DNA of 64,000 nt from Candidatus Omnitrophota bacterium (GCA_016201735.1 JACQCH010000040.1:18822-82821); one strand, 5' to 3'; shown: positions 18,723 to 43,083, counted from the first letter of the stretch. Notes: generated by a model from the sequence alone, not told the origin. Translations and numbers: made by a program.

Positions 18723-18725
18723 ATA

Positions 18726-27814: not shown

Positions 27815-28646
27815 ACCGTTTCTGGTTGTTTTTGTCTACCATGATGTCTCGGAGAAGCCCAGCCCCTTCAACCGGCGGTTCGGATTGAACGTGCCGCCGC
27901 GGCTGTTCTCTCGGCAGATGGATATGATCCGGGAACTGTTCCATCTGGTCGACCCGGCCCAACTACGCCGTGGAAGGTTCCCCACGCCGGCGGCATTGAT
28001 CACGTTCGATGATGGGAACTCGAGTTACTTTAAAACGGCCCTTCCCATCCTGAAAGAAAGGGAGATTCCCTCCCTGTCGTTTCTGAACCTGGGTCCGATC
28101 CGCGGGGAGATCTGCTGGTCGGGATTGGCCTCTTACCTTCAAACCGAAGAGCCGGCGTTTCGATCCTCTGATGGGGACCCATCACCGGATGCCTTCTGCC
28201 GGTTCACCCAGGAGGAAGTGGCCCGCTACCTGGACTCGGTGGACCAGGCCAAACTCTTTGAACGGGTCCGGGCTTTTCGAGGTCTCATGGCGACAGAGGC
28301 GGAACTGGCGGCGGCGGCCGATGAACCGTTGGTCGGTCTGGGAAATCATCTGTACAATCATTACAACGCCACCCTGCTGGGAGATCGGCTCCGAAAGGAA
28401 TATCGGGTGAATCAAGAGGTTTTGGACGCCCATCCCCGCGGGTTTCGGTTTTTCAGCTTTCCCTTCAGCCGGATGGATCGCCGGGCGATCCGGATGATCC
28501 GTGAGGAGGGAGCCGACGCGATCTTCTCGGGAAGGGGTTTTGCCAATCTCCCCGGTCAGGAGCGGGTTTATTCCCGAATGGAGATGAAGGAGTCCATAAT
28601 GGAACCGAAAGAGTTGATGGCTCATGTCCTTAGAAATCTCATCTGA
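27795..28646 (+). CDS. Polysaccharide deacetylase (NodB homology / CE4) family protein
   Basis: ATG 27795 after an AAAGGGAG. 'FVYHDVSE...', 'ITFDDGNSS' and 'HLYNH' are NodB-domain-like motifs. The long 5' extension of ORF 27426 is rejected. Confidence 0.5.
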   Translation: MFRWMVKPFLVVFVYHDVSEKPSPFNRRFGLNVPPRLFSRQMDMIRELFHLVDPAQLRRGRFPTPAALITFDDGNSSYFKTALPILKEREIPSLSFLNLGPIRGEICWSGLASYLQTEEPAFRSSDGDPSPDAFCRFTQEEVARYLDSVDQAKLFERVRAFRGLMATEAELAAAADEPLVGLGNHLYNHYNATLLGDRLRKEYRVNQEVLDAHPRGFRFFSFPFSRMDRRAIRMIREEGADAIFSGRGFANLPGQERVYSRMEMKESIMEPKELMAHVLRNLI

Positions 28647-30243: not shown

Positions 30244-31248
30244 GTGAATATTCTCTTATTCGGGTATGGGTACATGGGCAAGATCCGCCACGCGGTCCTG
30301 CGCCGGCATCCGGCGGTCCGGCGGGTCACCATTGTGGATCCATTCATCGATCCGAAGATGTTGGATCTCGATGGGGCCGTCCTGCCGCCGTGCGCTCCGG
30401 TTCCCTGGGAGGAGCACGACGCCGCGTTCATCTGCACTCCGAACAACGTGACGGCAGACCTCTGCGCGCAGAGCCTGAGGCGGCTGCGCCGCGTTTTCTG
30501 TGAGAAGCCGCCGGGCCGAAACTGGGAAGAGTTTTGTCAGATTGACGAGGCGGCCCGGTCCGTCCCGGATCACGTGCTGGCGTTCGGCTTCAATCACCGG
30601 CTGCACCCGTCGATTCAGGCCGCTTTGGCCCTTTTAGGGGAGGGGGGTTTAGGGGAGGTCTTGTACGTTAAGGGGACCTATGGGAAGTCGGGCGGCAGCC
30701 AATATCGAGAGAGCTGGCGGAACAACCGGGAGGTCTCCGGGGGGGGAATTCTTTTGGATCAGGGAATCCACATGCTGGACCTGTTCCAACTTTTCCTCGG
30801 ACCCTTGACGGTAGTGGAAGCCGTTTTGACCGATTCATTCTGGAAGTGCGGGGTGGAGGACAACGCCTTCGTGCTGTTGAAGGGCGGCAGGGGGCAGCCG
30901 GCCTTCCTCCATTCCTCCGCCACGCTCTGGAAGCACACGTTCCGAATTGAGATCGGCTGCGAGAATGGATACCTCAAGGCCAGCGGATTCCTCTCCAAGA
31001 CCGGAAGCTACGGGAGGGAGCAGTTGGTCATCGGCAAACGCCAGTTCGAAGATGAAGCATTCTCTCTGGGAAATCCCCGGGAGGAGATCATCCATTTCGA
31101 CCGGGACGAGTCCTGGGACAAGGAGGTTCATGAATTTTTGGCGGCGGTTCAAGAAGGGCGGCCTCCCCATCACGGGTCTTTGGAAGAGGCCCGGCAGGTG
31201 ATGAAACTGGTTCATGACATTTACGCGATGACACCCGTCACTCAATAA
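30244..31248 (+). CDS. Gfo/Idh/MocA family oxidoreductase
   Basis: GTG start. 'ILLFGYGYMGKIRHAVL' Rossmann motif, 'FCEKPPG' (the EKP motif of the family) and a C-terminal alpha/beta domain. Confidence 0.65.
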   Translation: MNILLFGYGYMGKIRHAVLRRHPAVRRVTIVDPFIDPKMLDLDGAVLPPCAPVPWEEHDAAFICTPNNVTADLCAQSLRRLRRVFCEKPPGRNWEEFCQIDEAARSVPDHVLAFGFNHRLHPSIQAALALLGEGGLGEVLYVKGTYGKSGGSQYRESWRNNREVSGGGILLDQGIHMLDLFQLFLGPLTVVEAVLTDSFWKCGVEDNAFVLLKGGRGQPAFLHSSATLWKHTFRIEIGCENGYLKASGFLSKTGSYGREQLVIGKRQFEDEAFSLGNPREEIIHFDRDESWDKEVHEFLAAVQEGRPPHHGSLEEARQVMKLVHDIYAMTPVTQ

Positions 31249-31257
31249 GGAGTTCGC

Positions 31258-32217
31258 ATGCGGTCTGTTGAAACCAACAGCTCATTTCCTTTATCGGCGG
31301 TAAAGCCGCTGGAGGAGCTTGCCAGCTACCGGGAATTCTGCCTTTCACAAACCCTCAAGGCGCTTCAACAAGGCCGGCGAAAACGGCAGATCTCTCCGGT
31401 CACCCATCAGCCGCTTGAGCCGTGCGGAGAGACGGCGGGGCTGGAGTACGGCCGCTGTTCCCAAACCGGATCTTTCTTCCTGATGACCCTTCCGCCCGCG
31501 TCCGCCTGGACACAGCTTCTTGAAGAGGTGAACCGGTTTCGGCATTCCCCGGAGGCCTTCCACTTTACCCATGCCCGCTCCCGGTCGGATAGGGTGTATC
31601 TGCCGAAGCTGGAGTGGATTCAGGAGACCTTGAGGTTTCAGCGGCTGGTTTCTCCCGCCGTTTTAGAGGTGGCTCCTTCTCCAAGCGATCTGATGCCGCT
31701 GTTGAAAGAGAGTGGCCTCTTCTCCAAGGGGTTTACCTCCTCAGAACAAGATGCTTCCAAATCTTCTTTGGATCAGGAGCCGGTGGAGGTGGCTCTTCTG
31801 CTGGAGGCGCTGGACCGAAGCGACGATCCGGAGGCCCTGCTGGAGGCAGTTCGAAAAAGGATGGTGACGGGAGGGCTCCTGTTCGTGACCGCCCTGGTGG
31901 TTTCCGGATTTGACATGGCGGTCTTGGGGATGAACAACCTCTACTGGGTTCCACCGGATCGGGCCAATGGGTTCAGCCTGAAGGGGTTGACCCAGTTCCT
32001 GACGCGGTTCGGCTTTAACCTGCTGGAGGTTTCCACGCCGGGCGTCCTCGATCTGGAGATCGTCCAAGCCCATCGACAGAGGGATCCCTCGATCCCTCTG
32101 TCTGTATTCGAGCGGCAGCTTTTGGAATCCGACGAACAGACTCGCATGGGGTTTCAATCCTTTCTTCAGCAGCAGGGTTTGAGTTCTTTTGCCCGTCTGG
32201 TTGCGAGGAAGGCCTAA
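31258..32217 (+). CDS. Hypothetical protein, possibly a divergent class I methyltransferase
   Basis: Perfect AAGGAG RBS 6 bp upstream. Weak motif-I-like 'VLEVAPSPSD' and 'LLFVTALVVSGFD'. No confident family. Confidence 0.35.
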   Translation: MRSVETNSSFPLSAVKPLEELASYREFCLSQTLKALQQGRRKRQISPVTHQPLEPCGETAGLEYGRCSQTGSFFLMTLPPASAWTQLLEEVNRFRHSPEAFHFTHARSRSDRVYLPKLEWIQETLRFQRLVSPAVLEVAPSPSDLMPLLKESGLFSKGFTSSEQDASKSSLDQEPVEVALLLEALDRSDDPEALLEAVRKRMVTGGLLFVTALVVSGFDMAVLGMNNLYWVPPDRANGFSLKGLTQFLTRFGFNLLEVSTPGVLDLEIVQAHRQRDPSIPLSVFERQLLESDEQTRMGFQSFLQQQGLSSFARLVARKA

Positions 32218-32221
32218 CGTT

Positions 32222-32851
32222 ATGGAGGGGAAGGTGAATTTTTCTTACTTGGAGCAGCACTTCAAGGAAACCGCCGAGATCGCCCATCGGTTGGATGTGG
32301 AGATTCTCGACCGAATGGTGGAGCGGCTGATCCGCCTCCGCCAGGAAGGGGGGCGGCTGTTTCTCTGCGGGGTCGGAGGATCTGCGGGGAATTGTTCCCA
32401 CGCGGTCAACGACTTCCGAAAGCTGACCGGGATCGACGCATCTACACCGGTGGATAACGTGTCGGAATTGACGGCCCGAACCAACGATGAAGGATGGGAA
32501 ACCGTGTTCGCCGAGTGGCTGAAGGTGAGCCGCGCCTGCGACAAGGACCTGCTGATGATTTTTTCCGTGGGTGGGGGAAGCCGGGAACGGAACATCAGCG
32601 CCAATCTCGTGGCGGCGATCGACGAAGCCAAACGCCGGGGGATGGCGGTGCTTGGAGTGGTTGGCAGGGATGGGGGCTATACCCGGCAGAAGGGAGACAT
32701 TGTGCTTGTCATCCCAACGGTGAATCCTCAACAGGTGACCCCCCATGCGGAAGCGTTTCAGTCCGTCGTCTGGCACGCGCTCGTGTGCGATCCTCGATTG
32801 ATGGTTCAGGAAAATAAATGGGAAGCTCTTATGGGGGAGCGTTCGAGATGA
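32222..32851 (+). CDS. gmhA: SIS-domain sedoheptulose-7-phosphate isomerase (GmhA-like)
   Basis: 'GRLFLCGVGGSAGNCSHAVNDFRKL' is the SIS/GmhA signature. 209 aa. Confidence 0.7.
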   Translation: MEGKVNFSYLEQHFKETAEIAHRLDVEILDRMVERLIRLRQEGGRLFLCGVGGSAGNCSHAVNDFRKLTGIDASTPVDNVSELTARTNDEGWETVFAEWLKVSRACDKDLLMIFSVGGGSRERNISANLVAAIDEAKRRGMAVLGVVGRDGGYTRQKGDIVLVIPTVNPQQVTPHAEAFQSVVWHALVCDPRLMVQENKWEALMGERSR

Positions 32852-33543
32852 GAGCGTTGACAGGAATCTTTTTGGACACCAGCAACATCGACGAGATTCG
32901 GAAATATCATGAGCTGGGGATTATTCGCGGCGTGACGACCAACCCGACGATTCTGGTCAAGGATGGGGCTTCCGGGTGGTCCGAGGTGGAGCGCCGATGC
33001 AAACGGATCGCGCAGGCGGTCAGCCCCCTGCCGGTCTCGGTGGAGGTGACCACCAACCATCCCGATGAGATGTTGGCCCAGGCGAAGCTGTTCTCCTCGT
33101 GGGCGGACAACATCAACGTCAAGATCACGGTTCACGGCCCGGAGGGAGGGGTGGAGAATCTGAGGATGATCCACGAATTAGAAACCAACCAGAACATCCG
33201 GATCAACGTGACGGCGATGATGTCCGCTCAACAGTGCCTGCTGGCCGCGATGGCGGGGGCGACGTACGTTTCCATCTTCGGGGGAAGGGTCAACAACATG
33301 GGGTACGATTCCCGGCAGGAGATTCGGCGCTTGAGGCAGCTCCTGGACTCCTTTAACCTGCCGGCGAAGATCATCGTCGGCTCCACACGGGAGGTGCTCA
33401 ACATCATCGAGTGGTTTGAGGCAGGCGCGGATATCGTGACCGCGGTTCCCTCACTCATTGAAGTGATGTTGGTTCATCCCTACAGCAAAGAGACAGTCCG
33501 GATGTTCCTCGAGGACGGCCGAAAGCTGCGCGCGAATGCTTGA
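32848..33543 (+). CDS. Transaldolase / fructose-6-phosphate aldolase family (Tal-MipB subfamily)
   Basis: ATGA overlap. 'IFLDTSNIDEIRKYHELGIIRGVTTNPTIL' and 'NVKIT' (Schiff-base Lys region) are typical of short transaldolases. Confidence 0.7.
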   Translation: MRALTGIFLDTSNIDEIRKYHELGIIRGVTTNPTILVKDGASGWSEVERRCKRIAQAVSPLPVSVEVTTNHPDEMLAQAKLFSSWADNINVKITVHGPEGGVENLRMIHELETNQNIRINVTAMMSAQQCLLAAMAGATYVSIFGGRVNNMGYDSRQEIRRLRQLLDSFNLPAKIIVGSTREVLNIIEWFEAGADIVTAVPSLIEVMLVHPYSKETVRMFLEDGRKLRANA

Positions 33544-34507
33544 GGCATTTCCCTGTCTAAGGCGGGAAGGGATGGGAGTTATTGACGTCGGCTCCCGGGG
33601 AGGGATCCATCCCCGCCTACGGCCGATCGCTTCGATTATTGATGTGGTCGGTTTTGAGCCTGATGCGGAGGAGGTCCGCCGCCTACAAGGGGAAGAGACC
33701 GGGCTGTTCCGATCCGTTCGGCATCTTCCTTATGCCTTGGGTCAAACCGACGGCCGTCAGACCCTTCATTTGTGCCGTTCCCGGGGGACCAGCTCCTTCT
33801 TAAAACCGAACCGCCCGTTCCTGGATCGCTTTCCGGATGCCTCCCGTTTTGATGTGGAAACGGCGCAGTCGGTAGAGGTGAAATCGCTGGATGGTTTGAT
33901 TCAAGGTTTCAGCGGCGGGTTGCCGCGCCAAATCGATTTTCTGAAGCTGGACACCCAGGGGTCGGAGTTGCTTGTCCTCAAAGGAGCGCATCAGACCTTG
34001 AGGTCGCAGGTGGTCGCTCTCGATATAGAGGTGGAGTTTGCCCCCCTCTATGAATCTCAGCCCCTCTTTCGGGATGTTGACGCATACCTGGCGGAATGCG
34101 GATTCACCCTGTTTAAATTGCGGAGGATGGAATGGGTCCGGCGCGGCTATGCCGAGCGGCCGTATCGCAGCGGTGGCCAGATCGTTTTCGGCGAGGCGGT
34201 TTATTTGAAGGACCCTCTGTCCAATGAGCAGTGGAGTCCTACTGCCCATCAGGTGGAGGCGCTAGTCCTTCTGGCGATCCTGTACGGCCAGCATGACTTT
34301 GTCAAGGAACTGATGGAACTGGCCCCGATCCAGGGCCGATGCGATGTTCCGGCGATCCGGGCGGTCCTGGAGCGAAACAGCCGCCGATCCAATTTCGAGA
34401 TGGGGACAAATCCGCTCCGACAGGCCTGGCGTTCGATGGGAACTCTCTGGGACCAATTCCGCCGCCGCTCTTCTTGGGGACGGGGGGATCCATGGGTTGG
34501 GAATTAA
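33536..34507 (+). CDS. FkbM-family SAM-dependent methyltransferase
   Basis: 'GVIDVGSRGGIHP' and 'VVGFEPD' form the FkbM motif. 323 aa. Confidence 0.55.
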   Translation: MLEAFPCLRREGMGVIDVGSRGGIHPRLRPIASIIDVVGFEPDAEEVRRLQGEETGLFRSVRHLPYALGQTDGRQTLHLCRSRGTSSFLKPNRPFLDRFPDASRFDVETAQSVEVKSLDGLIQGFSGGLPRQIDFLKLDTQGSELLVLKGAHQTLRSQVVALDIEVEFAPLYESQPLFRDVDAYLAECGFTLFKLRRMEWVRRGYAERPYRSGGQIVFGEAVYLKDPLSNEQWSPTAHQVEALVLLAILYGQHDFVKELMELAPIQGRCDVPAIRAVLERNSRRSNFEMGTNPLRQAWRSMGTLWDQFRRRSSWGRGDPWVGN

Positions 34508-34525
34508 GCAGATGAGGGGGTAAGA

Positions 34526-35323
34526 GTGGTCCAGGGAAATCATTCGTTGAAACGAAAACTGCGGGCCCGTGAGCCGGTCTTAGGGGCTTGGACCTCGTTG
34601 GCCCATCCCTCCATCACGGAGATTTTTGCCGCCTGCGGGGTGGACTTTGTCGGCATCGATATGGAGCATAGCACCATCACGCTCGAACAGGCCCAACAGG
34701 TGATGGCCGCCTCCCAGGCAGGCCAAGCGGCTTGCCTGCCGCGGGTCTCCTCTCACAATGGAGAGCAGATCCGGCGCCTCCTAGATTCCGGCGCGGATGG
34801 GATTATTGTCCCCAACGTCTCCTCGGCCAAGGAGGCGATCCCTCTTATCGAGTGGTGCAAGTATCCCCCTGTGGGCAAGCGCAGCTACGGGATCGCGCGT
34901 GCGCAGGGGTACGGCTTTCAATTTGAGGAATACACCCGGACATGGAACGAGCGCTCGGTCTTACTCCTTCAGATCGAGTCCGAGCAGGGGGCAGGCAGGA
35001 TTAACGAGCTTCTTCAATTCGACGCCGTGGATGGAGTCATGATCGGTCCCTACGATATGTCCGGTTCATTGGGAATTCCAGGCCAACTCGATCATCCTCT
35101 GATTTTAGAAGCCTGCCGGGGAGTCATCGACGCGGCCCGGCGGCACCGAAAGGCCTGCGGCACGCAGGTCGTGGACCCGACAGAGGAGAACGTGGCGGCC
35201 GCCTTTGAGGCGGGGTATACCTTTGTGGTATTGGCCTCGGACATCTTTATCCTTTGGAAATGGAGCCAAAGGATGCGGACGCTTACTGAGAACCTCAAAG
35301 CAGGGCTTCAACCCAAGACCTAA
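34526..35323 (+). CDS. HpcH/HpaI-family class II (pyruvate) aldolase
   Basis: 'VLGAWTSLAHPSITEIFAACGVDFVGIDMEHSTI' and 'DGVMIGPYDMSGSLGIPGQ' are the HpcH/HpaI/2-dehydro-3-deoxy-sugar-acid aldolase motifs. Confidence 0.7.
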   Translation: MVQGNHSLKRKLRAREPVLGAWTSLAHPSITEIFAACGVDFVGIDMEHSTITLEQAQQVMAASQAGQAACLPRVSSHNGEQIRRLLDSGADGIIVPNVSSAKEAIPLIEWCKYPPVGKRSYGIARAQGYGFQFEEYTRTWNERSVLLLQIESEQGAGRINELLQFDAVDGVMIGPYDMSGSLGIPGQLDHPLILEACRGVIDAARRHRKACGTQVVDPTEENVAAAFEAGYTFVVLASDIFILWKWSQRMRTLTENLKAGLQPKT

Positions 35324-36106
35324 ATGGCCAACAAAATTCCAATCGGAGTTGAGAAACGGTTCAATCTGCGGGGGAAGGTGGCGGCGGTGGTCGGGGGAGC
35401 AGGGTATCTGTGCTCCATGCTTGCCCGGGCCATGTGCGAGTCGGGTATGAAGGTGGTGGTCCTGGATCTGGCTCCATTTCCAAAGGGGAAAGGTTCCTCC
35501 GGTTTCAAGGATGGACCCCGCAGCCTCCCCTGCGACATCCTGGACAAGAAAGGCCTGATCCGATGCCGGGATGAAATCCTTAAAATGCATGGGCGGGTGG
35601 ACGTCTTGTTAAACGGGGCGGGAACCAATGCCCCGACCCCTTTCTCAGACATCACCCATGAGGAATTTCAGAAGATCGTAGGAGTGAATCTGTTGGGAAC
35701 CCTCTACGGATGCCAGGCCTTCGGGGAAAGCATGATCCGGCAGAAATCGGGGAGCATCATCAACTTCGCTTCCGTTTCTTCAGGGCCCCCTTTGTCAAAG
35801 GCCTTTGTCTACTCCGCGGCGAAATCCGGGGTGGTGAGTTTAACCCAGAACCTGGCCCGGGAATGGGCTCCTTTTCGGGTGCGGGTCAACGCGCTCCGGC
35901 CGGGGTTCTTTCCGACGAAGTGGAGCATGGAACATTTCATTGATCGGGATCGAAAGGCCAAGATCTTAAATCATACTCCCATGGGGCGTTTTGGCAGGCC
36001 CGAAGAGCTCATTGGCCCGGTCTTGTGGCTGGCTTCCGATGCCGCCAGTTTTGTGACCGGTTCGGTGGTGGCCGTGGACGGCGGTTTTACCGCCATGACG
36101 ATATGA
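35324..36106 (+). CDS. Short-chain dehydrogenase/reductase (SDR)
   Basis: 'KVAAVVGGAGYLCSMLA' Rossmann motif and 'YSAAKSGV' catalytic Y-x3-K. Confidence 0.65.
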   Translation: MANKIPIGVEKRFNLRGKVAAVVGGAGYLCSMLARAMCESGMKVVVLDLAPFPKGKGSSGFKDGPRSLPCDILDKKGLIRCRDEILKMHGRVDVLLNGAGTNAPTPFSDITHEEFQKIVGVNLLGTLYGCQAFGESMIRQKSGSIINFASVSSGPPLSKAFVYSAAKSGVVSLTQNLAREWAPFRVRVNALRPGFFPTKWSMEHFIDRDRKAKILNHTPMGRFGRPEELIGPVLWLASDAASFVTGSVVAVDGGFTAMTI

Positions 36107-36861
36107 CCCCCCCAAGAGACAGGCGGGTGGTGGCCGTCACAGGAGGGACTCGGGGCATTGGGCGGGCCATCTCAGAACTGTTCCTCGAGCGGGGTGACCA
36201 GGTCTGTGTCTGCGCCCGCTCTTTAGACGAGAACGATCTGCCGAAGGAGATGGCCCGCTTCTCCGTGGATGTCCGTCATCCTTCCGAGTTGGAAGGTTTT
36301 GCGCGGGCGGTGAAGAGTCGGTTTGGATCGCTGGACGTTTTTGTCAACTCCGCAGGGATATCCCAGTGGAGGCCCATTGGGGAATTGGACGAAGCCTTCG
36401 TTAAGGAAATAGTGGAAACCAACCTCTTGGGCACCCTCTGGGGATGCCGCTCGGCGGCCGGAGTGATGAAGGCGGGAGGGGCCATCGTCAACATCTCCAG
36501 CCTGGCCGGTAAAAGAGGCTCTGCCAACAACAGTGCTTACTGCGCGTCAAAATTTGCCGTCAATGGAATCACACAATCCCTGGCGAAGGAACTGGGACCC
36601 CAGGGGATCCGGGTCAACGCGGTCTGTCCCGTCTACGTCCGTACGGAAGAGCTGACAAAGGCTCTTTCGAAACCGGATTCGCCGGTGAAGGATCAGGCGG
36701 TGGAGGCGTATCTGACTTCCTTCGCCGCAACCCAAACGGCCCTTAGGCGGCTGCCGGAGGCCCTGGAGGTGGCTGGGGTAGTTTACTTTCTGGCCAGCCC
36801 CGATGCTTCCGCCGTGACCGGGCAGTGCATCAACGTGGACTGCGGGACCTTTCCCCAGTAG
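36103..36861 (+). CDS. Short-chain dehydrogenase/reductase (SDR, FabG-like)
   Basis: ATGA overlap. 'VVAVTGGTRGIGRAI' and 'YCASKFAV'. The N-terminal extension of ORF 36025 is rejected. Confidence 0.65.
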   Translation: MTPPRDRRVVAVTGGTRGIGRAISELFLERGDQVCVCARSLDENDLPKEMARFSVDVRHPSELEGFARAVKSRFGSLDVFVNSAGISQWRPIGELDEAFVKEIVETNLLGTLWGCRSAAGVMKAGGAIVNISSLAGKRGSANNSAYCASKFAVNGITQSLAKELGPQGIRVNAVCPVYVRTEELTKALSKPDSPVKDQAVEAYLTSFAATQTALRRLPEALEVAGVVYFLASPDASAVTGQCINVDCGTFPQ

Positions 36862-36868
36862 TGGAGCC

Positions 36869-37648
36869 GTGAGACCGATCCGAGTCGTGGCTGTGATCCC
36901 TGCGCGGATCAACTCCACCCGATTCCCCGGGAAACCTCTTTTGGAGGTTCAGGGGCTTCCGATGGTGGAGCATGTGCGGCGGCGGGCGCTGCTGGCCAAA
37001 GGATTTTGTTGCGTGGTCGTGGCGACCTGTGATCGGTCCATCGCAGAGGCGGTGGAACATTTTGGAGGGCAGGTGGTGATGACCTCGGCCGCCCACCCGG
37101 CTGCGACGGATCGGGTGGCGGAAGCGGCCCGGCATCTGGAGTGCACTCATGTGGTGAACGTTCAGGGGGATGAAATCCTGGTGCTCCCTTCCGATCTGGA
37201 AAAGATGCTGCGGGCGATGGAGAAGAACCCGGATCTTCCGGCTTGGAACGGAGTCGCCCCCCTTGTGGATCCTAAAGAGCTGACGGACCCTTCGGTGGTC
37301 AAATGCGCGGTCTCCCGAAGCGGCAGGATCCTGTTCTGCTCCAGGGTTTTTTCCGGAGGACGATTGGGGAATCCCTTACCGAGAACCCCGCTGCGCCGGG
37401 TCTTAGGCATCCTGGGGTACCGGAAGGAGTTCCTGGACCGGTACGGAACCCTCTCCAGGACCCCTTTGGAAACGGCTGAGTCCATTGACCAGTCCCGCAT
37501 CATCGAACATGATTTCCCCCTGCAGTCCGTGGAGTTTTCCAACGGTTATCCAGGGATCAATGAACCCCGCGAGATCGAGATGGTTCACACGGTTCTCCGG
37601 GAAGATCCGCTGCAGGAGACGGTTCTGAAGGAGGTGCTGGCCGGATGA
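36869..37648 (+). CDS. KdsB-family cytidylyltransferase (CMP-3-deoxy-2-ulosonic acid synthetase-like)
   Basis: 'RVVAVIPARINSTRFPGKPLLEVQGLPMVEHV' is near-canonical KdsB. 259 aa. Confidence 0.75.
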   Translation: MRPIRVVAVIPARINSTRFPGKPLLEVQGLPMVEHVRRRALLAKGFCCVVVATCDRSIAEAVEHFGGQVVMTSAAHPAATDRVAEAARHLECTHVVNVQGDEILVLPSDLEKMLRAMEKNPDLPAWNGVAPLVDPKELTDPSVVKCAVSRSGRILFCSRVFSGGRLGNPLPRTPLRRVLGILGYRKEFLDRYGTLSRTPLETAESIDQSRIIEHDFPLQSVEFSNGYPGINEPREIEMVHTVLREDPLQETVLKEVLAG

Positions 37649-38580
37649 AACCGAGGGTGGTGTACATCGCCCTGCAGCAGTTTTGCGAACAGGAGGGCCA
37701 TGCCCGCGAAACCTTGGAAGAAGCCGGGTTTCAGATCCTTCAGAATCAATTGGGCCGGCGGCTCCAGAGGGAGGAGATGCCGGAGATCCTTAAGGAAGCG
37801 GACGCGGTCCTGGCCGGTGTGGAACCTTACGATGCTCAACTGATTGCCGCTCTGCCCAAACTTAAATGCATCAGCCGCTGCGGCGTGGGAACCGAATCGG
37901 TGGACCTGGAGGCGGCCCGTCTCCATCGGATCGCCGTGTTGACCACTCCGGAGGAGGTGGTGGAGCCGGTGGCGCAGATGACCATCGGGATGATCCTCGC
38001 CCTGGCCAGGAACTTCCCGCAGCATCTGTCCGACGCCCGCCAGGGTCTCTGGAAGAAGCGGGTCGGATTCCTCCTTTCCGAATGGACGATCGGGATGGTG
38101 GGATTCGGTCGGATTGGGAGGGCAGTGGAACGAATTCTTCGAATCTTTGGTCCCAAGATTCGGGTGACCGATCCGAAGGCCGATCCGAGAAGCTTGCCCC
38201 CGGGCGTTGAGACCCGTGAGCTTTCCGCGCTGCTCGCGGAATCGGATCTGGTTTCCCTGCACGCCAGCCGCCGGCCGGAAGAAGGGCCTTTGCTGGGAGA
38301 GAGGGAGCTCCACCAGATGAGGCAGGGAAGTTATCTGGTCAACACCGCGCGGGGATCTCTGGTGGATGAAGCGGCGTTGGTTCGGGCGCTCGCCTCCGGG
38401 CATCTGGCGGCGGCCGCGTTGGATGTTTTCCAAACGGAGCCGGCCCAGAGCAGCCCGCTGTTTCAAATGCCGCAGGTCCTGTGCACTCCCCATGTAGGGA
38501 GTCTCACCCGGGCCTCCCGGGCGGCGATGGAGCTTAAATGCGCAAAAAACGTTGTGGAATTTTTTAATGGGTCCGCTTAG
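37645..38580 (+). CDS. D-isomer-specific 2-hydroxyacid dehydrogenase (SerA/GhrA/HprA-like)
   Basis: 'GMVGFGRIGRAVERIL' NAD-binding motif and a catalytic His region 'TPHVGSLT'. ATGA overlap. Confidence 0.75.
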   Translation: MKPRVVYIALQQFCEQEGHARETLEEAGFQILQNQLGRRLQREEMPEILKEADAVLAGVEPYDAQLIAALPKLKCISRCGVGTESVDLEAARLHRIAVLTTPEEVVEPVAQMTIGMILALARNFPQHLSDARQGLWKKRVGFLLSEWTIGMVGFGRIGRAVERILRIFGPKIRVTDPKADPRSLPPGVETRELSALLAESDLVSLHASRRPEEGPLLGERELHQMRQGSYLVNTARGSLVDEAALVRALASGHLAAAALDVFQTEPAQSSPLFQMPQVLCTPHVGSLTRASRAAMELKCAKNVVEFFNGSA

Positions 38581-39076
38581 TCTCGGCTGCGACCTGTGCC
38601 GGATCGGCGAGATGGATCGGATGCTCAAGGAGGATCCGGCCTCCACCCAGCGCCTATTTCATCCCGAGGAATGGGAATACGCCTTTTCTCGGACTCGACC
38701 GGAACAGCATCTGGCCGGTTTCTTCGCGGCCAAAGAGGCCCTGGCCAAGGCGATCCGGGAATCGACCCTGTTGGGAAAGTATCGCCAGGAAGTGATCGTC
38801 CGCCATCGAGAGGACGGCGCTCCCTACCTGGTCCTCTCCGATTCCTTGTCTGAAACCTTTTCGAATCTGGGGATGAAAATCCTGGATCTTTCCGTTTCCC
38901 ACGATGGGGACTACGCCATGGCCGCCGTCATCGTCCGGACACAGCCCCTGCAGTGCGCCAAGTGCTTGTTAAGCATAGACCATTTGAGGACCCAGCGGGT
39001 GGCGGAATGGCTGATGCCGGTAGAAACACGTGAGGGGACCCGGTTTCTTTGTCCCCCATGCCTGAGAGGTTGGTAG
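38567..39076 (+). CDS. acpS: AcpS-type 4'-phosphopantetheinyl transferase with C-terminal Cys-rich tail
   Basis: 'LGCDLCRIGEM' (Mg site) and 'FFAAKEALAKA' are AcpS motifs. A C-terminal ~45 aa extension carries 'CAKC...CPPC'. Confidence 0.55.
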   Translation: MGPLSLGCDLCRIGEMDRMLKEDPASTQRLFHPEEWEYAFSRTRPEQHLAGFFAAKEALAKAIRESTLLGKYRQEVIVRHREDGAPYLVLSDSLSETFSNLGMKILDLSVSHDGDYAMAAVIVRTQPLQCAKCLLSIDHLRTQRVAEWLMPVETREGTRFLCPPCLRGW

Positions 39077-39077
39077 G

Positions 39078-39317
39078 ATGGATCCGGCTCAAAGATTAAA
39101 AGAGACCATCTCCCGATACTGGAACCTGCCGGCGGAGCAGATCGATTGGGACATGGAATTCAACGACCGCAGGCTCGCGGCTTTCTCTTCGCTGCGGATG
39201 CTCCGTTTTTTGGCCAGCGTGGAGGAGCAGTTTCAGATCAACATCCAGGATTCGGATGCGGTCAAACGGTTCAAAGACCTCTGGATCCTTGTGGAGGGCA
39301 GATGCTCCGGCTCATAA
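39078..39317 (+). CDS. Acyl carrier protein
   Basis: 79 aa. '[24 protein letters not shown]' fits the ACP helix II pattern with Ser in the 'DSL' position. Immediately downstream of the PPTase. Confidence 0.6.
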
Positions 39318-40024
39318 AAAAGAGCGCCCATCTCCCGTTTCGTTGGGCCTTCTTTAAGAGACTCGAAGGCCGGGTTGAGATTGGAAAGGCCTGCCGGGTC
39401 CCTTTTCATAACATCCGTTTCACCGTGCGCCGCTTGGTGGTCGGCGACTACGTCCGGTTTGGGGACCGGCTGTTCCTACAGGGAAACTCCTTCGTCTTCG
39501 GGAACCACTTCTTCTGCGGACCGGATGTTCAAATCACAGGGGTGGGCGGGACCTTTGAGGTGGGCAAATTCAGCTCCTTTGGATCGGACGTCCGGTTCCT
39601 CTTGGGCAAAGGAAATCATCGGATCCACTCCCTGTCCAGTTTTCCCTTCGGTAATCTGCCTCAGTTTGATGAGCCGGGATGGAGAGAGGCCTTTGCCCAC
39701 GAAGAGGAATCGAACACCTTCTGCAAGGTGGGGAATGACGTCTGGATTGGGATCGGAAGCGTGATCCTCCCCAACGTCACCATCGGGCATGGGGCCATCG
39801 TCACCGCCGGATCGGTGGTGACCGCCGACGTGCCCCCCTACGCCGTGGTGGGGGGGAATCCGGCGCAGATTATTTGCTTTCGATTCAAACAGATTCTGAT
39901 TCAGGAGCTTTTGGAAATCTGCTGGTGGGACTGGCCGGTGGAGAAGATCCGTCGGAACAAATCGTTCTTCACCCGGAACCTGTCCACCCGAACTTCTCTG
40001 GAATCCGTGGAGATCGCCCCCTAG
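39302..40024 (+). CDS. Hexapeptide-repeat (left-handed beta-helix) acyltransferase
   Basis: Internal ATG 39302 overlaps the ACP stop. Repeats '[31 protein letters not shown]'. The ORF 39146 5' extension across the ACP gene is rejected. Confidence 0.65.
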
Positions 40025-40025
40025 G

Positions 40026-41867
40026 ATGTCGGACCTGGCCGCGTTGAAACAAAAAATTCTTCAGGTGATGGCGGAGGCCTCCGAATCGGACGCCGCCTAC
40101 GTCCAGGCGGCGGACCTCCTCCAGGGAGCGTCTCTCGAAGGGCTCCCCCCGCTGCGGCTGGCGGTCCTGCGCTCCTTCACCATTGAACCCCTGATCGAGG
40201 TCTTGAAGGTTAAGCTCTTCCTCGAAGGATACCGGCTCGAACTGTTTTTGAACGAGTTTAACCAGGTGGAGCAGGAGATCCTCGATCCTCAGAGCCGGTT
40301 TTACCGGTTCTCTCCCCAAGTCGTTTTCTTGGCCGTCCGGCTGGAGGAACTGTGCCCGGCTCTGTTGAAGGGGAGATCCCGCTTGAGTCCCCCGCAGTTG
40401 GAGGAGATGGAGAAGGAGGTTCTCTCAACCCTTTCCGGCTGGATTGAGATGATGATCCGTCAGGGAATACCCAACTTCCTGCTTTCCAACTTCTTGGTTC
40501 CTCCCGCGGGACCCCAGGGGATTTTCGACCTCCAGACTCCCGCCGGCCAGATCCCGGTGATCCGCCGACTGAATTTAAAACTCCTCTCCCTGCGGGAACC
40601 GTTTCCGCAGATGATTCTTTTTGACCTGGAGTTGTTGGCCTCCGGCCTGGGCAAAGCTCAGTTCCTGGATCCGCTTCAGTATTATCGGATGTCCAATCCG
40701 TACGCCCTGTCTGCCTATCCGGCCTATGGGGAATTCCTGTTGAGACATCTGAAAGCCCTGCTGGGCCACCGCCGGAAATGCCTCGTGTTAGACCTGGACG
40801 ACACCCTTTGGGGAGGGGTCCTCGGGGAGGAGGGAATCCAAGGGGTGAAACTCTCCGACACCTATCCTGGAAACTGCTACAAGGATTTCCAGAAGGGCCT
40901 TCTGGAGCTTCACGACCGGGGGATCTTGTTGGCCGTCAACAGCAAAAACAATCTTGACGAGGCATTGGCGATGATCCGGACTCACCCGGAGATGATCCTC
41001 CGGGAGGAGTCCTTCAGCGCCGTTCGGATCAACTGGAAGGACAAGGCCGAAAACCTTCTGGAGATCGCCCAGGAGCTGAACCTGGGGCTGGATGCGTTCG
41101 TCTTCATGGACGATAGCCCTGCGGAATGTCAGAGAATCCGGGAGGCCTTCCCGGAAGTGATGGTCGCTGAGCTGTCCAAGCAGGCGCATCGGTTCCGATC
41201 GGTCCTGGAGAACTTGGGCTGTTTCGAACAGATCGCACTGACTCCCGAGGATCGGTCCCGGACCGATTTGTACCGAACTCAAGGACAGCGGCAGAAACTT
41301 GCCTCACAGTCCGGGAATCTGGAGGAGTTTTACGCGGGCCTGAAGATGTGCGCCACGCTGTACCGCAATGATCCCCGTCATGTTTCCCGGATCGCCCAGA
41401 TCACTCAGAAAACCAATCAGTTTAATCTCACCACGCGGCGATACACCGAATCGGAGATCCTCCGATTCATGAAGCAAGGAATGGTGTACGCCCTCCGGCT
41501 GGAGGACCGGTTCGGGGACAACGGAATTATCGCCGCCGCTATTGTTCTTCCCAAGGGTACGAGTGGAGAGTGGGTCATTGATTCGTTTCTCATGAGCTGC
41601 CGGGTGATCCTGCGGACCGTTGAGGATACCTTCCTGGGGATCATCGCTCAGGAGGCGGAAGAAGCGGGCAAAAAACAATTGGTCGGAATCTACCTCCCTA
41701 CGGCTCGCAACGGCATGGTGAATGAATTTTATCTCAAGCGAGGGTTCCGACTGCGGCGGCAAGAGCCTTCCGGTGAGATGGAATACCTCCTGGAGCTGGG
41801 TGGTCCAGAGGGGGTGAGGCCTTCCCCTTGGATCCAGCTTAAAACAGAGGTGGAGATCCCCCGGTGA
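40026..41867 (+). CDS. FkbH-like HAD-superfamily protein (glyceryl-ACP-forming phosphatase/transferase family)
   Basis: 'CLVLDLDDTLWGGVLGEEG' is the HAD motif I, which is the FkbH signature. 613 aa, consistent with FkbH-domain proteins. Confidence 0.7.
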   Translation: MSDLAALKQKILQVMAEASESDAAYVQAADLLQGASLEGLPPLRLAVLRSFTIEPLIEVLKVKLFLEGYRLELFLNEFNQVEQEILDPQSRFYRFSPQVVFLAVRLEELCPALLKGRSRLSPPQLEEMEKEVLSTLSGWIEMMIRQGIPNFLLSNFLVPPAGPQGIFDLQTPAGQIPVIRRLNLKLLSLREPFPQMILFDLELLASGLGKAQFLDPLQYYRMSNPYALSAYPAYGEFLLRHLKALLGHRRKCLVLDLDDTLWGGVLGEEGIQGVKLSDTYPGNCYKDFQKGLLELHDRGILLAVNSKNNLDEALAMIRTHPEMILREESFSAVRINWKDKAENLLEIAQELNLGLDAFVFMDDSPAECQRIREAFPEVMVAELSKQAHRFRSVLENLGCFEQIALTPEDRSRTDLYRTQGQRQKLASQSGNLEEFYAGLKMCATLYRNDPRHVSRIAQITQKTNQFNLTTRRYTESEILRFMKQGMVYALRLEDRFGDNGIIAAAIVLPKGTSGEWVIDSFLMSCRVILRTVEDTFLGIIAQEAEEAGKKQLVGIYLPTARNGMVNEFYLKRGFRLRRQEPSGEMEYLLELGGPEGVRPSPWIQLKTEVEIPR

Positions 41868-43083
41868 CCATGAACTGCTGGCCGGTGGTATAAGCCGTAT
41901 ATGGAGAGGCAAGGATGAGGATGGCTTTTGCCACGTCCAAAGGCTGGCAGTTCCGCTTCATCGGGGTGGAATCGGCGATTCGCTGGAACGCCTGGTCGGA
42001 AAGGGTGTTGGTCAAATCGGTGGGAGTGATGTTCGGAGTGACCAGGTTGACCCGGATGTTGCGCCCGGCATATTCGGCAGCGAGGGCACGGCTGAGACCA
42101 ACCAGTCCCGACTTGGAGGTGATGTACCGAACCTGGTGGGGAACCGGAGACTCCACGAAAACGGTGGAGACATTGACGATGTTTCCTCCTCCCTGGCGAA
42201 GCATCGAAGGGATCACCCCTTGACAGCACAAGAAGGCCCCTTTCACGGTCACGTTGAGTTCTTCCTGCAGGGCCTCCCAGGTCAGCTCTTCAAACCGCAG
42301 GGGGCTGGCATCGCGGACGGCGTTGTTGACCAGCACATCAATCCGCTTAAACTCCGCCAGGGTCTTCTCCACCATGGCCTCCACCTCGCTGGGGACCGAG
42401 ACGTCCGCGCCGACGGCGATGGCCCGCCGTTTGTGGGCGGTGATCTCCCGGACAATGGCTTCCGCGTCCGATTTTCCGTTCCGGTAATTCACCACGACGT
42501 TGGCGCCGCGCGAGGCGAACAGCTTAGCCGTCGTCTCGCCGATCCCCCGGCTGGCCCCCGTGATCAGGACGGTCCGATCGGTGAAATCCAGGTTCAAATC
42601 CAGATCTTGAAGTTCAGACATGGTGACTCCTTTTTTTGCCGGGGGAGAGACGTAGACCTCGATCTTTCCCTCCGTGATCGGTTGTTGCGTCGAGAGATTC
42701 GTCAACAAAACGTGGAGCTTGATGATCCTTGTTCCGATGCTCTTGGACACCACCCGGCCCGAAACCCGAATCCGATCCCCGATGCGCGCGGGAGCCAAAA
42801 AGGAGGCTTCCACCCCCAAGAGGATGGCGTTTTTACCGGGAAGAACCATCCCCACCATGGCCGAGAGGGCGGTGAAGGGAAGCATCCCGTGGACCACCCG
42901 CCCCCGGAAACGGCTGCGTCTTGCAAATTCGGAATCCAGGTGCAAGTCGGAGAAATCCCCTGACAGATGGGCAAAGCTCTGCACATCCTGCTCCTCCACC
43001 AAGAGATCGAACTGGGCCTTGAGGTCCACCTCAATCTCTTCGAGCGTGTAGGAATTGTGCCGCATCTCCGAGAGGATTTGCAT
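41839..43083 (-). CDS. MaoC-like (hotdog) dehydratase fused to FabG-like 3-oxoacyl reductase (SDR)
   Basis: N-terminus 'SGDFSDLHLDSEFA' is the MaoC motif. C-terminus 'VLITGASRGIGETTAKLFASRGANVVV' and 'YITSKSGL' are SDR motifs. The only minus-strand gene in the window. Confidence 0.7.
   Translation of the reverse strand: MQILSEMRHNSYTLEEIEVDLKAQFDLLVEEQDVQSFAHLSGDFSDLHLDSEFARRSRFRGRVVHGMLPFTALSAMVGMVLPGKNAILLGVEASFLAPARIGDRIRVSGRVVSKSIGTRIIKLHVLLTNLSTQQPITEGKIEVYVSPPAKKGVTMSELQDLDLNLDFTDRTVLITGASRGIGETTAKLFASRGANVVVNYRNGKSDAEAIVREITAHKRRAIAVGADVSVPSEVEAMVEKTLAEFKRIDVLVNNAVRDASPLRFEELTWEALQEELNVTVKGAFLCCQGVIPSMLRQGGGNIVNVSTVFVESPVPHQVRYITSKSGLVGLSRALAAEYAGRNIRVNLVTPNITPTDLTNTLSDQAFQRIADSTPMKRNCQPLDVAKAILILASPYTAYTTGQQFMVTGGSPPLF

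Follow-up and report, generated by a model that had tools for sequence, protein, structure and literature searches.

In the OzmB-type mechanism of FkbH proteins, 1,3-bisphosphoglycerate is converted to a phosphoglyceryl thioester, and its dephosphorylation leads to glyceryl-ACP (PMC9057759). The FkbH loading modules of trans-AT polyketide synthases (PKS) have been modelled as forming D-lactate-ACP from 1,3-bisphosphoglycerate and ACP (PMC7901079), and OocJ has the architecture DH-MT-FkbH-ACP (PMC4552970). Among glycans, nonulosonates bearing glyceroyl or di-O-methylglyceroyl groups occur, and the responsible genes have yet to be identified (PMC5378307, PMC6120980, PMC3068675); the gene for the glyceroyl modification of pseudaminic acid was described as elusive by the authors of the T. 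forsythia work (PMC6120980, PMC5378307). Antigenicity, recognition by phages and lectins, and the function of flagella are all influenced by the N-acyl groups that sialic-acid-like sugars carry, and for most of the non-acetyl substituents the genes are unknown. An FkbH-domain gene, cj1302, is located in the flagellin glycosylation locus of C. jejuni (PMC7099621), which is the nonulosonate locus of an organism that makes di-O-methylglyceroyl-Pse (PMC7099621, PMC3068675, SugarBase preprint 10.64898/2026.04.20.719630). In the searchable literature, we found no publication that ties cj1302 functionally to the glyceroyl group and, as the first-pass annotation of the DNA studied here had supposed, no described FkbH/ACP route to glyceroyl-nonulosonates. 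The neighbours of cj1302 presumably include acpP2/3 and fabH2.

The window analyzed here is a stretch of 64,000 nucleotides from a Candidatus Omnitrophota bacterium (GCA_016201735.1 JACQCH010000040.1:18822-82821). Positions 38567-43083 contained a module of five genes, encoding a 4'-phosphopantetheinyl transferase (PPTase), an acyl carrier protein (ACP), a hexapeptide-repeat (LbH) acyltransferase, an FkbH-like protein, and a convergent MaoC::SDR fusion. All five had been named in the first-pass annotation; each was found where it had been placed, and the domains were matched in HMM searches. With moderate confidence, we regard the module as a self-contained, carrier-protein-dependent system for producing a C3 acyl donor with which a glycan precursor is decorated. 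This reading builds on the observed domain identities, catalytic motifs, gene coupling, conserved synteny, and association with NeuB loci, while the substrates, the order of the steps, and the acceptor are taken from family knowledge and gene context.

The gene junctions were read from the sequence. The PPTase gene overlaps the preceding 2-hydroxyacid dehydrogenase gene by 14 nt and is separated from the ACP gene by 1 nt; the ACP and LbH genes overlap by 16 nt, with GGAGGG 5' of the LbH start; a gap of 1 nt separates LbH from FkbH; and the FkbH and MaoC::SDR genes converge with the overlap of 29 nt that the first-pass annotation had reported. Independent gene calls on a public contig of identical sequence gave the same coordinates for the module. 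All six loci with the FkbH of the window or a homologue of 54-63% identity contained the PPTase-ACP-LbH-FkbH block in synteny, and the 29-nt overlap was kept in four of these six. Since the four-gene block is kept in every close-clade locus while the flanks are rearranged, the arrangement exceeds chance.

The FkbH-like protein (613 aa; 40026-41867, + strand) matched TIGR01686 with 301.1 bits against 146.65, over positions 3-321 of the 323 in the model, and TIGR01681 with 69.6 bits (cut-off 35.75), together with HAD-IIIC and FkbH_N. It has three domains: a degenerate SGNH-like domain at the N terminus, a HAD-IIIC phosphatase domain containing the motif LDLDDTLWGG, and a GNAT-fold domain, a putative glyceryl-transferase domain. 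Each of the HAD motifs D256/D258/T260 (DxDxT), S306, K340, and D362/D363 was retained by 135 or more of the 142 homologues. Residues SCR524-526 were invariant or nearly so, with C525, the candidate carrier of the (phospho)glyceryl thioester, present in all 142, and the motif around this cysteine, LMSCRV, was shared with a 359-aa FkbH-type protein from an NRPS/PKS cluster of B. cereus, to which the protein was 31% identical along all of those 359 aa. Gene order suggests that the B. cereus protein is ZmaN. The TIGR01686 score, the complete set of HAD motifs, and Cys525 identify the ORF at 40026 as a genuine member of the FkbH family rather than a generic HAD phosphatase. A reading in which the protein is a mere KdsC-like sugar-phosphate phosphatase of the adjacent ulosonic-acid pathway, the LbH protein is an ordinary O-acetyltransferase that uses acetyl-CoA, and the ACP and PPTase belong to another process would agree with the phosphatase fold of the HAD-IIIC domain and with the use of acetyl-CoA by XAT-class enzymes; moreover, the HpcH/KdsB sub-cluster of the window has no separate HAD phosphatase, while those of loci L164 and L002 have one. 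Against it stand the invariant SCR cysteine of the GNAT-fold domain, the match along the full TIGR01686 model, the translationally coupled dedicated PPTase, and the presence, in 111 of 155 loci, of an ACP-like ORF no more than 1.5 kb from FkbH, and we consider it very unlikely.

The PPTase (38567-39076, + strand) is of the AcpS type, with 44.6 bits to PF01648 and 70.4 bits to TIGR00556 (cut-off 45.35). Its catalytic D (GCDLC) and E (AAKEA motif) were conserved in six loci, as was a Cys4 tail, CxxC...CPxC-RGW, at the C terminus. It scored under the AcpS equivalog cut-offs and is thus a divergent AcpS-type member. Its activation target is presumed to be the adjacent ACP (79 aa; 39078-39317, + strand), whose Pfam match was weak (PF00550, 23.7 bits vs 20.8) and which fell beneath every NCBIfam ACP cut-off (20.4 vs 66). 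A 10-residue motif of the ACP was kept in six orthologues, and the second Ser of this motif, S38, which was kept in all six, aligned with E. coli AcpP Ser36, where helix 2 begins. The serine that a phosphopantetheinylatable carrier must have is therefore present, and Ser38 is the predicted attachment site.

The LbH protein (240 aa; 39302-40024, + strand; PF00132, 38.7 bits) belongs to the XAT/CatB/Vat class, as its best PDB matches were 1xat, 3eev, and 1khr at E values of about 1e-28 (7.5e-29 for 1xat). Its NHR aligned with the GHR of 1xat, the His of which we take to be the catalytic His of PaXAT, and a C-terminal WWDWP motif was common to both. Against the curated models of resistance enzymes, it remained well under the cut-offs (Vat, 128.5 vs 300; CatB, 116.6 vs 350). 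The analogy to LpxA and LpxD that had been drawn in the first-pass annotation was not supported: the LpxA model NF003657 gave 31 bits against a cut-off of 226, with the match confined to generic hexapeptide repeats, and the closest relatives of the protein are the acetyl-CoA-dependent XAT enzymes. From its family and position, the LbH protein is presumed to move the ACP-borne acyl group onto a sugar. The characterised proteins nearest to it take acetyl-CoA, which is a counterpoint to an acyl-ACP donor; however, acetyl-CoA is probably not its donor, because its gene is coupled to that of the ACP.

The fusion of a MaoC hotdog hydratase/dehydratase with a FabG-like SDR (41839-43083, - strand; MaoC, 62 bits; adh_short_C2, 189 bits) lies on the opposite strand to the rest of the module. 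In the stretch FAHLSGDFSDLHLDSEFA, the MaoC domain retains G-D-x4-H, presumably the hydratase-2 motif that bears the catalytic Asp and His, with S-D in place of N-P; in L044, the homologue shows the motif in its canonical form, GDYNPLH. The SDR domain contains TGASRGIG (TGxxxGxG), NVSTV with the catalytic Ser, and YITSK (YxxxK). The closest PDB matches of the fusion were FabG, and its score against the FabG equivalog model stayed under the cut-off (199 vs 298). Over its full length, it was 38% identical to a co-directional fusion directly 5' of FkbH in the acidobacterial NeuB locus of Solibacter.

Two other roles of this fusion were weighed. The first, which the first-pass annotation had offered as an option, is that MaoC::FabG makes an (R)-3-hydroxyacyl group, such as 3-hydroxybutyryl, from crotonyl or acetoacetyl thioesters and that the LbH protein puts this group, not the FkbH-derived unit, on the amine of a nonulosonate. 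The resemblance of the SDR domain to FabG and the retained hydratase Asp and His agree with it, and 3-hydroxybutyryl-substituted Pse and Leg are well known chemically. However, it leaves unexplained why MaoC, with or without the SDR, is directly beside FkbH-ACP in 32 loci, and it would make hydratase and ketoreductase a redundant double route to one product. The window yielded neither KAS III nor thiolase, and only one of the 17 MaoC-adjacent loci had KAS III near FkbH. This option is weakened by these observations and appears improbable. It is proposed, as the more plausible role, that the fusion acts on ACP-bound glyceryl, since it has a fixed place beside FkbH-ACP across many loci and KAS III is scarce; we know of no MaoC-type hydratase that acts on 2,3-dihydroxyacyl thioesters. 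The second is that the final group is a plain glyceroyl, linked as amide or ester, and that MaoC::SDR is unrelated or acts elsewhere, on a sugar keto group or a lipid. In two of the six close-clade loci, the four-gene block occurs without MaoC::SDR; one of them, L003, has in its place a TylF-type O-methyltransferase directly 3' of FkbH, which recalls di-O-methylglyceroyl-Pse (PMC3068675). Nonulosonates with a glyceroyl group are also known (PMC5378307). With the 29-bp overlap kept in the other four loci and the fusion adjoining FkbH in other phyla too, a plain glyceroyl product is unlikely, although it deserves to be kept in view.

Two pathways in the window are candidates for supplying the acceptor. 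One is marked by a KdsB-like CMP-ulosonate cytidylyltransferase (36869-37648, + strand; NF003952, 209.5 bits vs cut-off 193) and spans 30244-37648. Between this gene and the PPTase lies a PGDH-like D-2-hydroxyacid dehydrogenase (37645-38580, + strand; PF02826, 173 bits), translationally coupled to the PPTase and possibly an accessory enzyme; a cytidylyltransferase gene with a 2-Hacid_dh gene after it was seen again in L164 and L044, and the set SIS / FSA / HpcH / CTP_transf_3 accompanies the module again in L164-L166. The other candidate consists of the legionaminic-acid-type genes (9729-15808, + strand; TIGR models), encoding NeuB (TIGR03569, 426 vs 400), NeuC (TIGR03568, 431 vs 236), a NeuD/PglD-type N-acetyltransferase (above cut-off with TIGR03570, 212 bits), a CBS-nucleotidyltransferase, LegB (TIGR04180, 426.5 bits, under the cut-off of 475), and LegC (TIGR04181, 465.6 vs 420), with a LegF-like cytidylyltransferase in the ORF at 7766-8962. 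The legionaminic-acid context that had been read from the sequence is thus real, with LegC, NeuC, and NeuB above cut-off. As the target of acylation, this sugar is not secure: its genes exist, but they occupy about 5.5-15.8 kb of the window, 23-33 kb upstream of the module, whereas the genes coupled directly upstream are those of the KdsB-like cytidylyltransferase and the 2-hydroxyacid dehydrogenase, next to a second pathway that includes an HpcH aldolase. Local coupling points to this second, KdsB-type ulosonic-acid pathway as the source of the acceptor. A polysaccharide deacetylase (27426-28646, + strand; PF01522), homologous (E 2e-40) to one that adjoins MaoC::SDR in L164, is a possible de-N-acetylase that would free an amine ahead of re-acylation. 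All annotatable neighbours of the module have functions in glycan biosynthesis, and no ketosynthase, acyltransferase domain, or thioesterase was found at the locus. Both observations speak against a small lipid, polyketide-like compound, or lipid anchor as the product in place of a sugar substituent, a possibility raised by distant FkbH loci that pair with KAS III, malonyl-CoA:ACP transacylase, and UbiA-type genes (L004) and which we regard as highly improbable.

There are thousands of FkbH-like genes, many of them in glycan loci, and cj1302 is a published case (PMC7099621); the first-pass view of FkbH and ACP as foreign to such loci in the normal case is not supported. Of 155 loci, 32 had MaoC no farther than 1.5 kb from FkbH, and in 17 of these 32 there was an SDR match as well. 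Among the 68 FkbH loci with full flanks, NeuB was present in the flank of 13 of 17 with adjacent MaoC and 2 of 51 without it (Fisher p = 7e-9), counts that are not independent events because several related acidobacterial genomes are included. Within 2.5 kb of FkbH, a GNAT was found in 9/17 MaoC-type loci and 1/51 others, and a deacetylase in 8/17 and 2/51. FkbH-ACP-MaoC modules were strongly enriched beside NeuB/NeuC genes in several phyla, which fits the acylation of nonulosonic acids. The PPTase, FkbH, ACP, and LbH genes were clustered also in Asgard archaea and Bathyarchaeia. In the cultured Clostridium moutaii, the module sits in a Maf/pseudaminic-acid flagellin island, in the order Maf, a short CTP_transf_3-matching ORF, FkbH, ACP, MaoC, GNAT, PseF-like cytidylyltransferase, and NeuB, followed by an unannotated ORF, methyltransferase, PseB-like dehydratase, TPR protein, and PseG-like protein.

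The pathway that we propose would begin with the conversion of the apo-ACP to holo-ACP at Ser38 by the AcpS-type PPTase. The FkbH-like enzyme would then react with glycolytic 1,3-bisphosphoglycerate to form a phosphoglyceryl thioester on Cys525 of the GNAT-fold domain, and its HAD domain would strip the phosphate before the glyceryl group is handed to holo-ACP, as in OzmB-type enzymes (PMC9057759). Where MaoC::SDR is present, its hotdog domain may dehydrate glyceryl-S-ACP, a 3-hydroxyacyl thioester, to enol-pyruvoyl/pyruvoyl-S-ACP, which the FabG-like domain would reduce to lactyl-S-ACP. This step is the least certain of the mechanism, and the final group may remain glyceroyl; we know of no N-lactyl nonulosonate. 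Finally, the XAT-class LbH protein would move the acyl group off the ACP and onto an ulosonic-acid sugar, or a precursor of it, at an amino or hydroxyl position. This sugar could be a Leg-type nonulosonate or what the adjacent KdsB-like pathway produces, and de-N-acetylation by the PF01522 deacetylase may come before the transfer. Of the acyl-decoration idea in the first-pass annotation, the core has been retained, given a real FkbH, the ACP serine, a conserved unit, and NeuB/NeuC enrichment, while the 3-hydroxyacyl option has lost ground and the LpxA analogy has been dropped.

More tentatively, and with somewhat less than an even expectation of being right, FkbH-ACP with or without MaoC/SDR, a variable acyltransferase (XAT-LbH, GNAT, MBOAT), and a PF01522 deacetylase may constitute a widespread bacterial and archaeal cassette that replaces N-acetyl groups or esterifies hydroxyls of nonulosonic or related ulosonic acids with a glycolysis-derived C3 acyl group (glyceroyl, pyruvoyl, lactyl). 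If so, it would provide the genes that have been missing for the glyceroyl-type substituents of pseudaminic, legionaminic, and fusaminic acids and predict new lactyl/pyruvoyl nonulosonates in Acidobacteriota, Omnitrophota, Clostridium, and Nitrososphaeria. Should the module work in the way proposed above, a polyketide-style loading enzyme would tap glycolysis directly for a glycan-decorating acyl donor, and FkbH with ACP and acyltransferase beside NeuB would be a simple genomic marker for unusual nonulosonates, usable on thousands of uncultured genomes, archaea included. New donor-forming enzymes would also become available for the chemoenzymatic synthesis of modified nonulosonates, and Clostridium moutaii MT-5, with its module in the Maf/Pse flagellin island, is a cultured organism available for testing.

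Among the known systems, the XAT-class acetyltransferases (PaXAT, CatB, Vat) resemble the LbH protein in overall match, aligned His, and WWDWP motif, whereas the protein here carries about 80 additional N-terminal residues, is encoded by an ACP-coupled gene, and scores 128 against the curated cut-off of 300. The loading module of BryA has the order DH-KR-FkbH-ACP, and trans-AT PKS loading modules in general bring together FkbH, ACP, hotdog dehydratase, and ketoreductase, as does the module here; in the latter, however, these are discrete proteins, the dehydratase is of the MaoC type rather than a PKS DH, and the product would reach a sugar, not a ketosynthase. In Vibrio cholerae O1, RfbK-N attach a tetronate to the perosamine of the O-antigen in a carrier-protein-dependent manner. 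Group II of the Aeromonas flagellar glycosylation island contains ACP, 3-oxoacyl-ACP reductase, AMP-ligase, and LuxC/E in a pseudaminic-acid locus (PMC7874193). Both systems, like the module here, place a dedicated ACP and fatty-acid-type enzymes inside a glycan locus, but their ACP is loaded by an adenylating ligase without FkbH, and the acyl units differ. The FkbH/OzmB/ZmaN-type polyketide systems share with this locus the HAD-IIIC domain, the Cys-bearing C-terminal domain (TIGR01686), and a small dedicated ACP adjoining, while the protein here is extended at its N terminus by an SGNH-like domain of about 245 aa and its module is without FkbI/K/G-type oxidation or methylation enzymes and without a PKS. 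OzmB-type pathways lead to methoxymalonyl-/hydroxymalonyl-ACP and tetronate polyketides, whereas the partners of FkbH here are a sugar-type acyltransferase and the genes of a glycan locus.

The genes of the module were identified from an ORF list and HMM scans of the window, and every gene named in the first-pass annotation was present. The PPTase gene (38567-39076, plus strand) matched PF01648 with 44.6 bits and TIGR00556 with 70.4 bits (cut-off 45.35), and it was followed on the same strand by the genes for the 79-aa ACP (39078-39317; PF00550, 23.7 bits against 20.8), the hexapeptide acyltransferase LbH (39302-40024) and a 613-aa FkbH-like protein (40026-41867), which matched TIGR01686 with 301.1 bits (cut-off 146.65) over model positions 3-321 of 323 and was also recognized by the HAD-IIIC and FkbH_N models. 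The MaoC::SDR fusion was encoded on the minus strand (41839-43083). As read from the sequence, the upstream 2-hydroxyacid dehydrogenase gene overlapped the PPTase start by 14 nt, the PPTase and ACP genes were spaced by 1 nt, as were those of LbH and FkbH, and the ACP gene ran 16 nt into the LbH gene, whose ATG has GGAGGG six bases before it. The convergent FkbH and MaoC::SDR genes overlapped by the 29 nt reported earlier (41839-41867). A public contig of identical sequence, annotated independently, has the module genes at these coordinates.

The FkbH assignment was supported by conserved residues as well as by the model score. Across 142 homologues with 30-100% identity, the DxDxT motif (256-260), S306, K340, the DD pair (362-363) and the SCR triplet with C525 were invariant or nearly so, and the ORF at 40026 belongs to the FkbH family rather than to the generic HAD phosphatases. 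Residues 251-601 aligned end to end with a 359-aa FkbH-type protein of B. cereus (31% identity, E 2e-35), the LMSCRV segment included. This protein is encoded in a plasmid NRPS/PKS cluster, which resembles the zwittermicin cluster in gene order, and presumably corresponds to ZmaN. In polyketide pathways it is well established that FkbH loads a glyceryl unit onto ACP. The 366-aa OzmB-type enzymes have been described to form a phosphoglyceryl-S-enzyme from 1,3-bisphosphoglycerate, and after dephosphorylation to pass the glyceryl group to ACP (PMC9057759). The N-terminal SGNH-like domain of the window protein is probably non-catalytic because a conserved nucleophile and His are absent; in many homologues Asp or Asn takes the place of the block-I Ser, and the block-V His was not conserved, which made an active esterase or acyltransferase unlikely.

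The carrier protein shared one ACP motif with its orthologues, six in all, and the second Ser of this motif, S38, was kept in each of them. S38 aligned with Ser36 of E. coli AcpP, and therefore the ACP does not lack a phosphopantetheinylatable Ser. The PPTase retained the catalytic Asp and the AAKEA motif of AcpS. Its C-terminus (38940-39076) carried an extension of some 45 aa, in which four Cys residues are conserved in the arrangement CxxC...CPxC and which ends in RGW; it was present in all six close-clade loci and absent from B. subtilis AcpS. The four Cys residues may form a zinc ribbon.

PaXAT, CatB and Vat, which are acetyl-CoA-dependent enzymes, were the nearest relatives of LbH (E about 1e-28), with the catalytic His aligned, and the LpxA model gave 31 bits (cut-off 226). 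The proposed analogy with LpxA and LpxD therefore failed, and acyl-ACP is presumed to be the donor from the genetic context. The MaoC::SDR fusion retained the hydratase Asp and His in one half and TGxxxGxG, Ser and YxxxK in the other, the SDR half being closest to FabG.

In the proposed mechanism, the ACP would be primed by the PPTase and FkbH would transfer a glyceryl unit from 1,3-bisphosphoglycerate to it via Cys525 and the HAD domain. The ACP-bound unit would then probably be acted on by MaoC::SDR, and the acyltransferase would move the acyl group to an amine or hydroxyl of a sugar, perhaps after de-N-acetylation, a step considered possible because a deacetylase recurs near FkbH. Decoration of a glycan with a C3 acyl group derived from FkbH and ACP is the general mechanism that we hold with slightly better than even confidence. 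Within it, a lactyl or pyruvoyl-type final group is put forward tentatively. Glyceryl-S-ACP, being a 3-hydroxyacyl thioester, could be converted by the hotdog dehydratase to enol-pyruvoyl or pyruvoyl-S-ACP and by the ketoreductase to lactyl-S-ACP, and by this route MaoC::SDR may make a lactyl group. The D-2-hydroxyacid dehydrogenase might reduce a pyruvoyl group to D-lactyl. BryA contains a DH-KR-FkbH-ACP module. A DH-MT-FkbH-ACP module occurs in OocJ (PMC4552970), and the FkbH loading modules of trans-AT PKSs have been modelled as forming D-lactate-ACP from 1,3-bisphosphoglycerate and ACP (PMC7901079). Within the same mechanism the group could also stay plain glyceroyl, which is considered less probable than a lactyl or pyruvoyl-type group. 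The first-pass annotation had also offered a 3-hydroxyacyl group made by the MaoC/FabG fusion, and the fusion does hold both sets of catalytic residues, but this reading is less parsimonious, since it does not account for MaoC being so constantly adjacent to FkbH, and KAS III was found near FkbH in only one of 17 MaoC-type loci. Neither KAS III nor malonyl transacylase, looked for as a source of C4 chain extension, was found within the window, and a C4 unit made in this way was rejected. Overall, the interpretation in the first-pass annotation is partly supported; it held for the FkbH identity and the carrier Ser.

The closest FkbH clade (54-63% identity) is known from metagenomes only; its loci (L002, L003 and L164-L166) were found by exact-protein look-ups, and close relatives were nearly absent from scans of metagenome and genome contigs, where the best matches had 52% (partial) and 42% identity. 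The order PPTase-ACP-LbH-FkbH was kept in all six loci, namely the window contig (L001), L002, L003, L164, L165 and L166, with an IS element between LbH and FkbH in L165. The convergent overlap of FkbH and MaoC::SDR was exactly 29 nt in four of them (window 41839-41867, L002 11814-11842, L164 3583-3611 and L166 5036-5064). The DNA around this overlap was unusually conserved although the proteins were only 54-63% identical, and GTGACCATGA was invariant in the four loci. MaoC::SDR was absent from L003 and L165. In L003, FkbH was followed by a TylF-type O-methyltransferase and a deacetylase, with Leg-type genes directly upstream, and the final group could be O-methylglyceroyl where the methyltransferase replaces MaoC::SDR in this manner. 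Parts of a SIS, FSA, HpcH, CTP_transf_3 and 2-Hacid_dh set were found at rearranged positions in L164, L165 and L166. A cytidylyltransferase gene with a D-2-hydroxyacid dehydrogenase gene directly after it recurred in Omnitrophota-type and acidobacterial FkbH-module loci (window 36869-38580, L164 12599-13611 and the Candidatus Solibacter locus L044 15243-16923).

The FkbH-like family proved very large, with E <= 1e-10 for 7,919 of 8,000 scored candidates and at least 590 relatives in one-per-species genomes; among the matches listed were Asgard, Bathyarchaeia and Nitrososphaeria archaea. We surveyed 155 FkbH-containing loci with our own ORF calling and phmmer/hmmsearch. Within 1.5 kb of FkbH, an ACP-like ORF was found in 111 loci and MaoC in 32, 17 of which had an SDR match too. 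PPTase, ACP and LbH occurred together in 11 loci, including Asgard and Bathyarchaeia; in the archaeal MAGs L008, L014, L016, L030 and L033 (about 9-12.5 kb), PPTase-FkbH-ACP was accompanied by a convergent short LbH, and NeuB was not found within 10 kb. To our knowledge, a dedicated ACP/PPTase pair is unusual for archaea. For 68 loci, both flanks extended to 8 kb or more; in this set NeuB was present in the flank of 13 of the 17 MaoC-adjacent loci versus 2 of the 51 others (Fisher p = 7e-9), counts that are not phylogenetically independent because several loci are from related Acidobacteriota. A NeuA-like cytidylyltransferase in the flank showed the same tendency (13/17 versus 3/51), as did GNAT (9/17 versus 1/51) and the PF01522 deacetylase (8/17 versus 2/51) within 2.5 kb, and the association was seen across at least five phyla.

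Representative loci differed in their acyltransferases. In L044, the order was PglF-like dehydratase, ABC-2 transporter, MaoC::SDR (38% identical to that of the window over the full length), FkbH, ACP, GNAT, deacetylase, NeuB, NeuC, CTP_transf_3 and 2-Hacid_dh. In the cultured Clostridium moutaii MT-5 (L052, 7684-19693), the module is within a flagellin pseudaminic-acid island, which runs through the flagellin glycosyltransferase gene Maf, a short CTP_transf_3-matching ORF, FkbH, ACP, MaoC, GNAT, a PseF-like cytidylyltransferase, NeuB (PseI-like), an unannotated ORF, a methyltransferase, a PseB-like dehydratase, a TPR protein and a PseG-like protein. This strain is a ready experimental system, and a 2026 survey of Clostridium flagellar pseudaminic acids does not mention such FkbH-ACP-MaoC-GNAT genes (PMC13317340). 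On S. meliloti pSymB (L167, 8043-13077), an MBOAT gene, one intervening gene, ACP and a 628-aa FkbH-like protein lie together, some 10 kb away from capsule genes (rkpR among them); the MBOAT and carrier protein layout resembles that of the Dlt system and by analogy suggests extracytoplasmic acylation of a polysaccharide. Thus FkbH-ACP is the constant core, and the acyltransferase partner is variable (XAT-LbH, GNAT or MBOAT).

The entire 64-kb window is a glycan biosynthesis locus. A Leg-type set at about 5.5-15.8 kb comprised a NeuB-type synthase, a NeuC-type epimerase, a NeuD/PglD-type N-acetyltransferase, a CBS-nucleotidyltransferase, LegB and LegC, and the ORF at 7766-8962 held a LegF-like cytidylyltransferase, which ruled out the KdsB-like gene as the sole cytidylyltransferase and hence as CMP-Leg synthetase. 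Directly 5' of the module and coupled to it, a different sub-cluster (30244-38580) encoded a GFO/IDH/MocA oxidoreductase, two methyltransferases (one FkbM-type), two SDRs, a GmhA-like SIS protein, an FSA/TalC-like aldolase, an HpcH/HpaI class-II pyruvate aldolase, the KdsB-like cytidylyltransferase (NF003952, 209.5 bits against 193) and a PGDH-like 2-hydroxyacid dehydrogenase. It may make a CMP-activated ulosonic acid by way of a pyruvate aldolase, independently of PEP, and we know of no described pathway of this composition. Since the Leg-type set is distinct from the KdsB-like set that is coupled to the module, two CMP-activated ulosonic acids seem to be made by the locus. The placement of the module inside a nonulosonic-acid locus accordingly stands at the scale of the window but not locally, where the coupled genes are the KdsB-like set. 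As for the acceptor, the cross-phylum data point to a nonulosonate, whereas the genes coupled locally favour what the KdsB-like pathway makes. The PF01522 deacetylase at 27426-28646 was homologous to that beside MaoC::SDR in L164 (E 2e-40). On the main coding strand, no Pfam match was obtained for six ORFs with lengths of 314-735 aa (15766-17820, 19442-20653, 20729-21958, 21876-24083, 28624-30243 and 56241-57185), and L003 encodes a 725-aa protein, likewise without a Pfam match, at the equivalent place after the LegC-type aminotransferase. Candidate enzymes for modifying the sugars with acetimidoyl or amide groups are two AsnB-type glutamine amidotransferases and a HisF/HisH-like pair (2079-4097, 50567-52408 and 17817-19445); an AnsB-domain protein has been proposed for the acetamidino group of T. 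forsythia (PMC6120980).

The open-access full-text literature yielded no description of glyceroyl or hydroxybutyryl nonulosonates being made through FkbH and ACP, in agreement with the first-pass annotation. Glyceroyl-bearing nonulosonates occur in T. forsythia ATCC 43037 (Pse5Am7Gra) and in F. nucleatum ATCC 23726 (fusaminic acid). In C. jejuni, which makes di-O-methylglyceroyl-Pse (PMC3068675; SugarBase preprint), cj1302 has been named as an FkbH-domain gene of the flagellar glycosylation locus (PMC7099621). For T. forsythia, Tomek et al. described the gene behind the glyceroyl modification as elusive (PMC6120980), and Friedrich et al. called the genetic basis a major challenge (PMC5378307); no open-access paper linking FkbH/ACP to glyceroyl-type substituents was found. 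FkbH-ACP genes commonly carry the annotation "HAD-IIIC family phosphatase" or "FkbH-like protein", and the window is unexceptional because thousands of loci have such pairs. It contributes a clear variant of four to five genes that includes a PPTase of its own, and an answer to this open question that can be put to the test. The novelty is the proposed use for glycan decoration of an FkbH-ACP donor module known from polyketide pathways. A dedicated ACP in a glycan locus, as in the window module, also serves tetronate synthesis in V. cholerae O1. The same feature is shared by the flagellar glycosylation islands of Aeromonas, which contain dedicated ACPs (PMC7874193).
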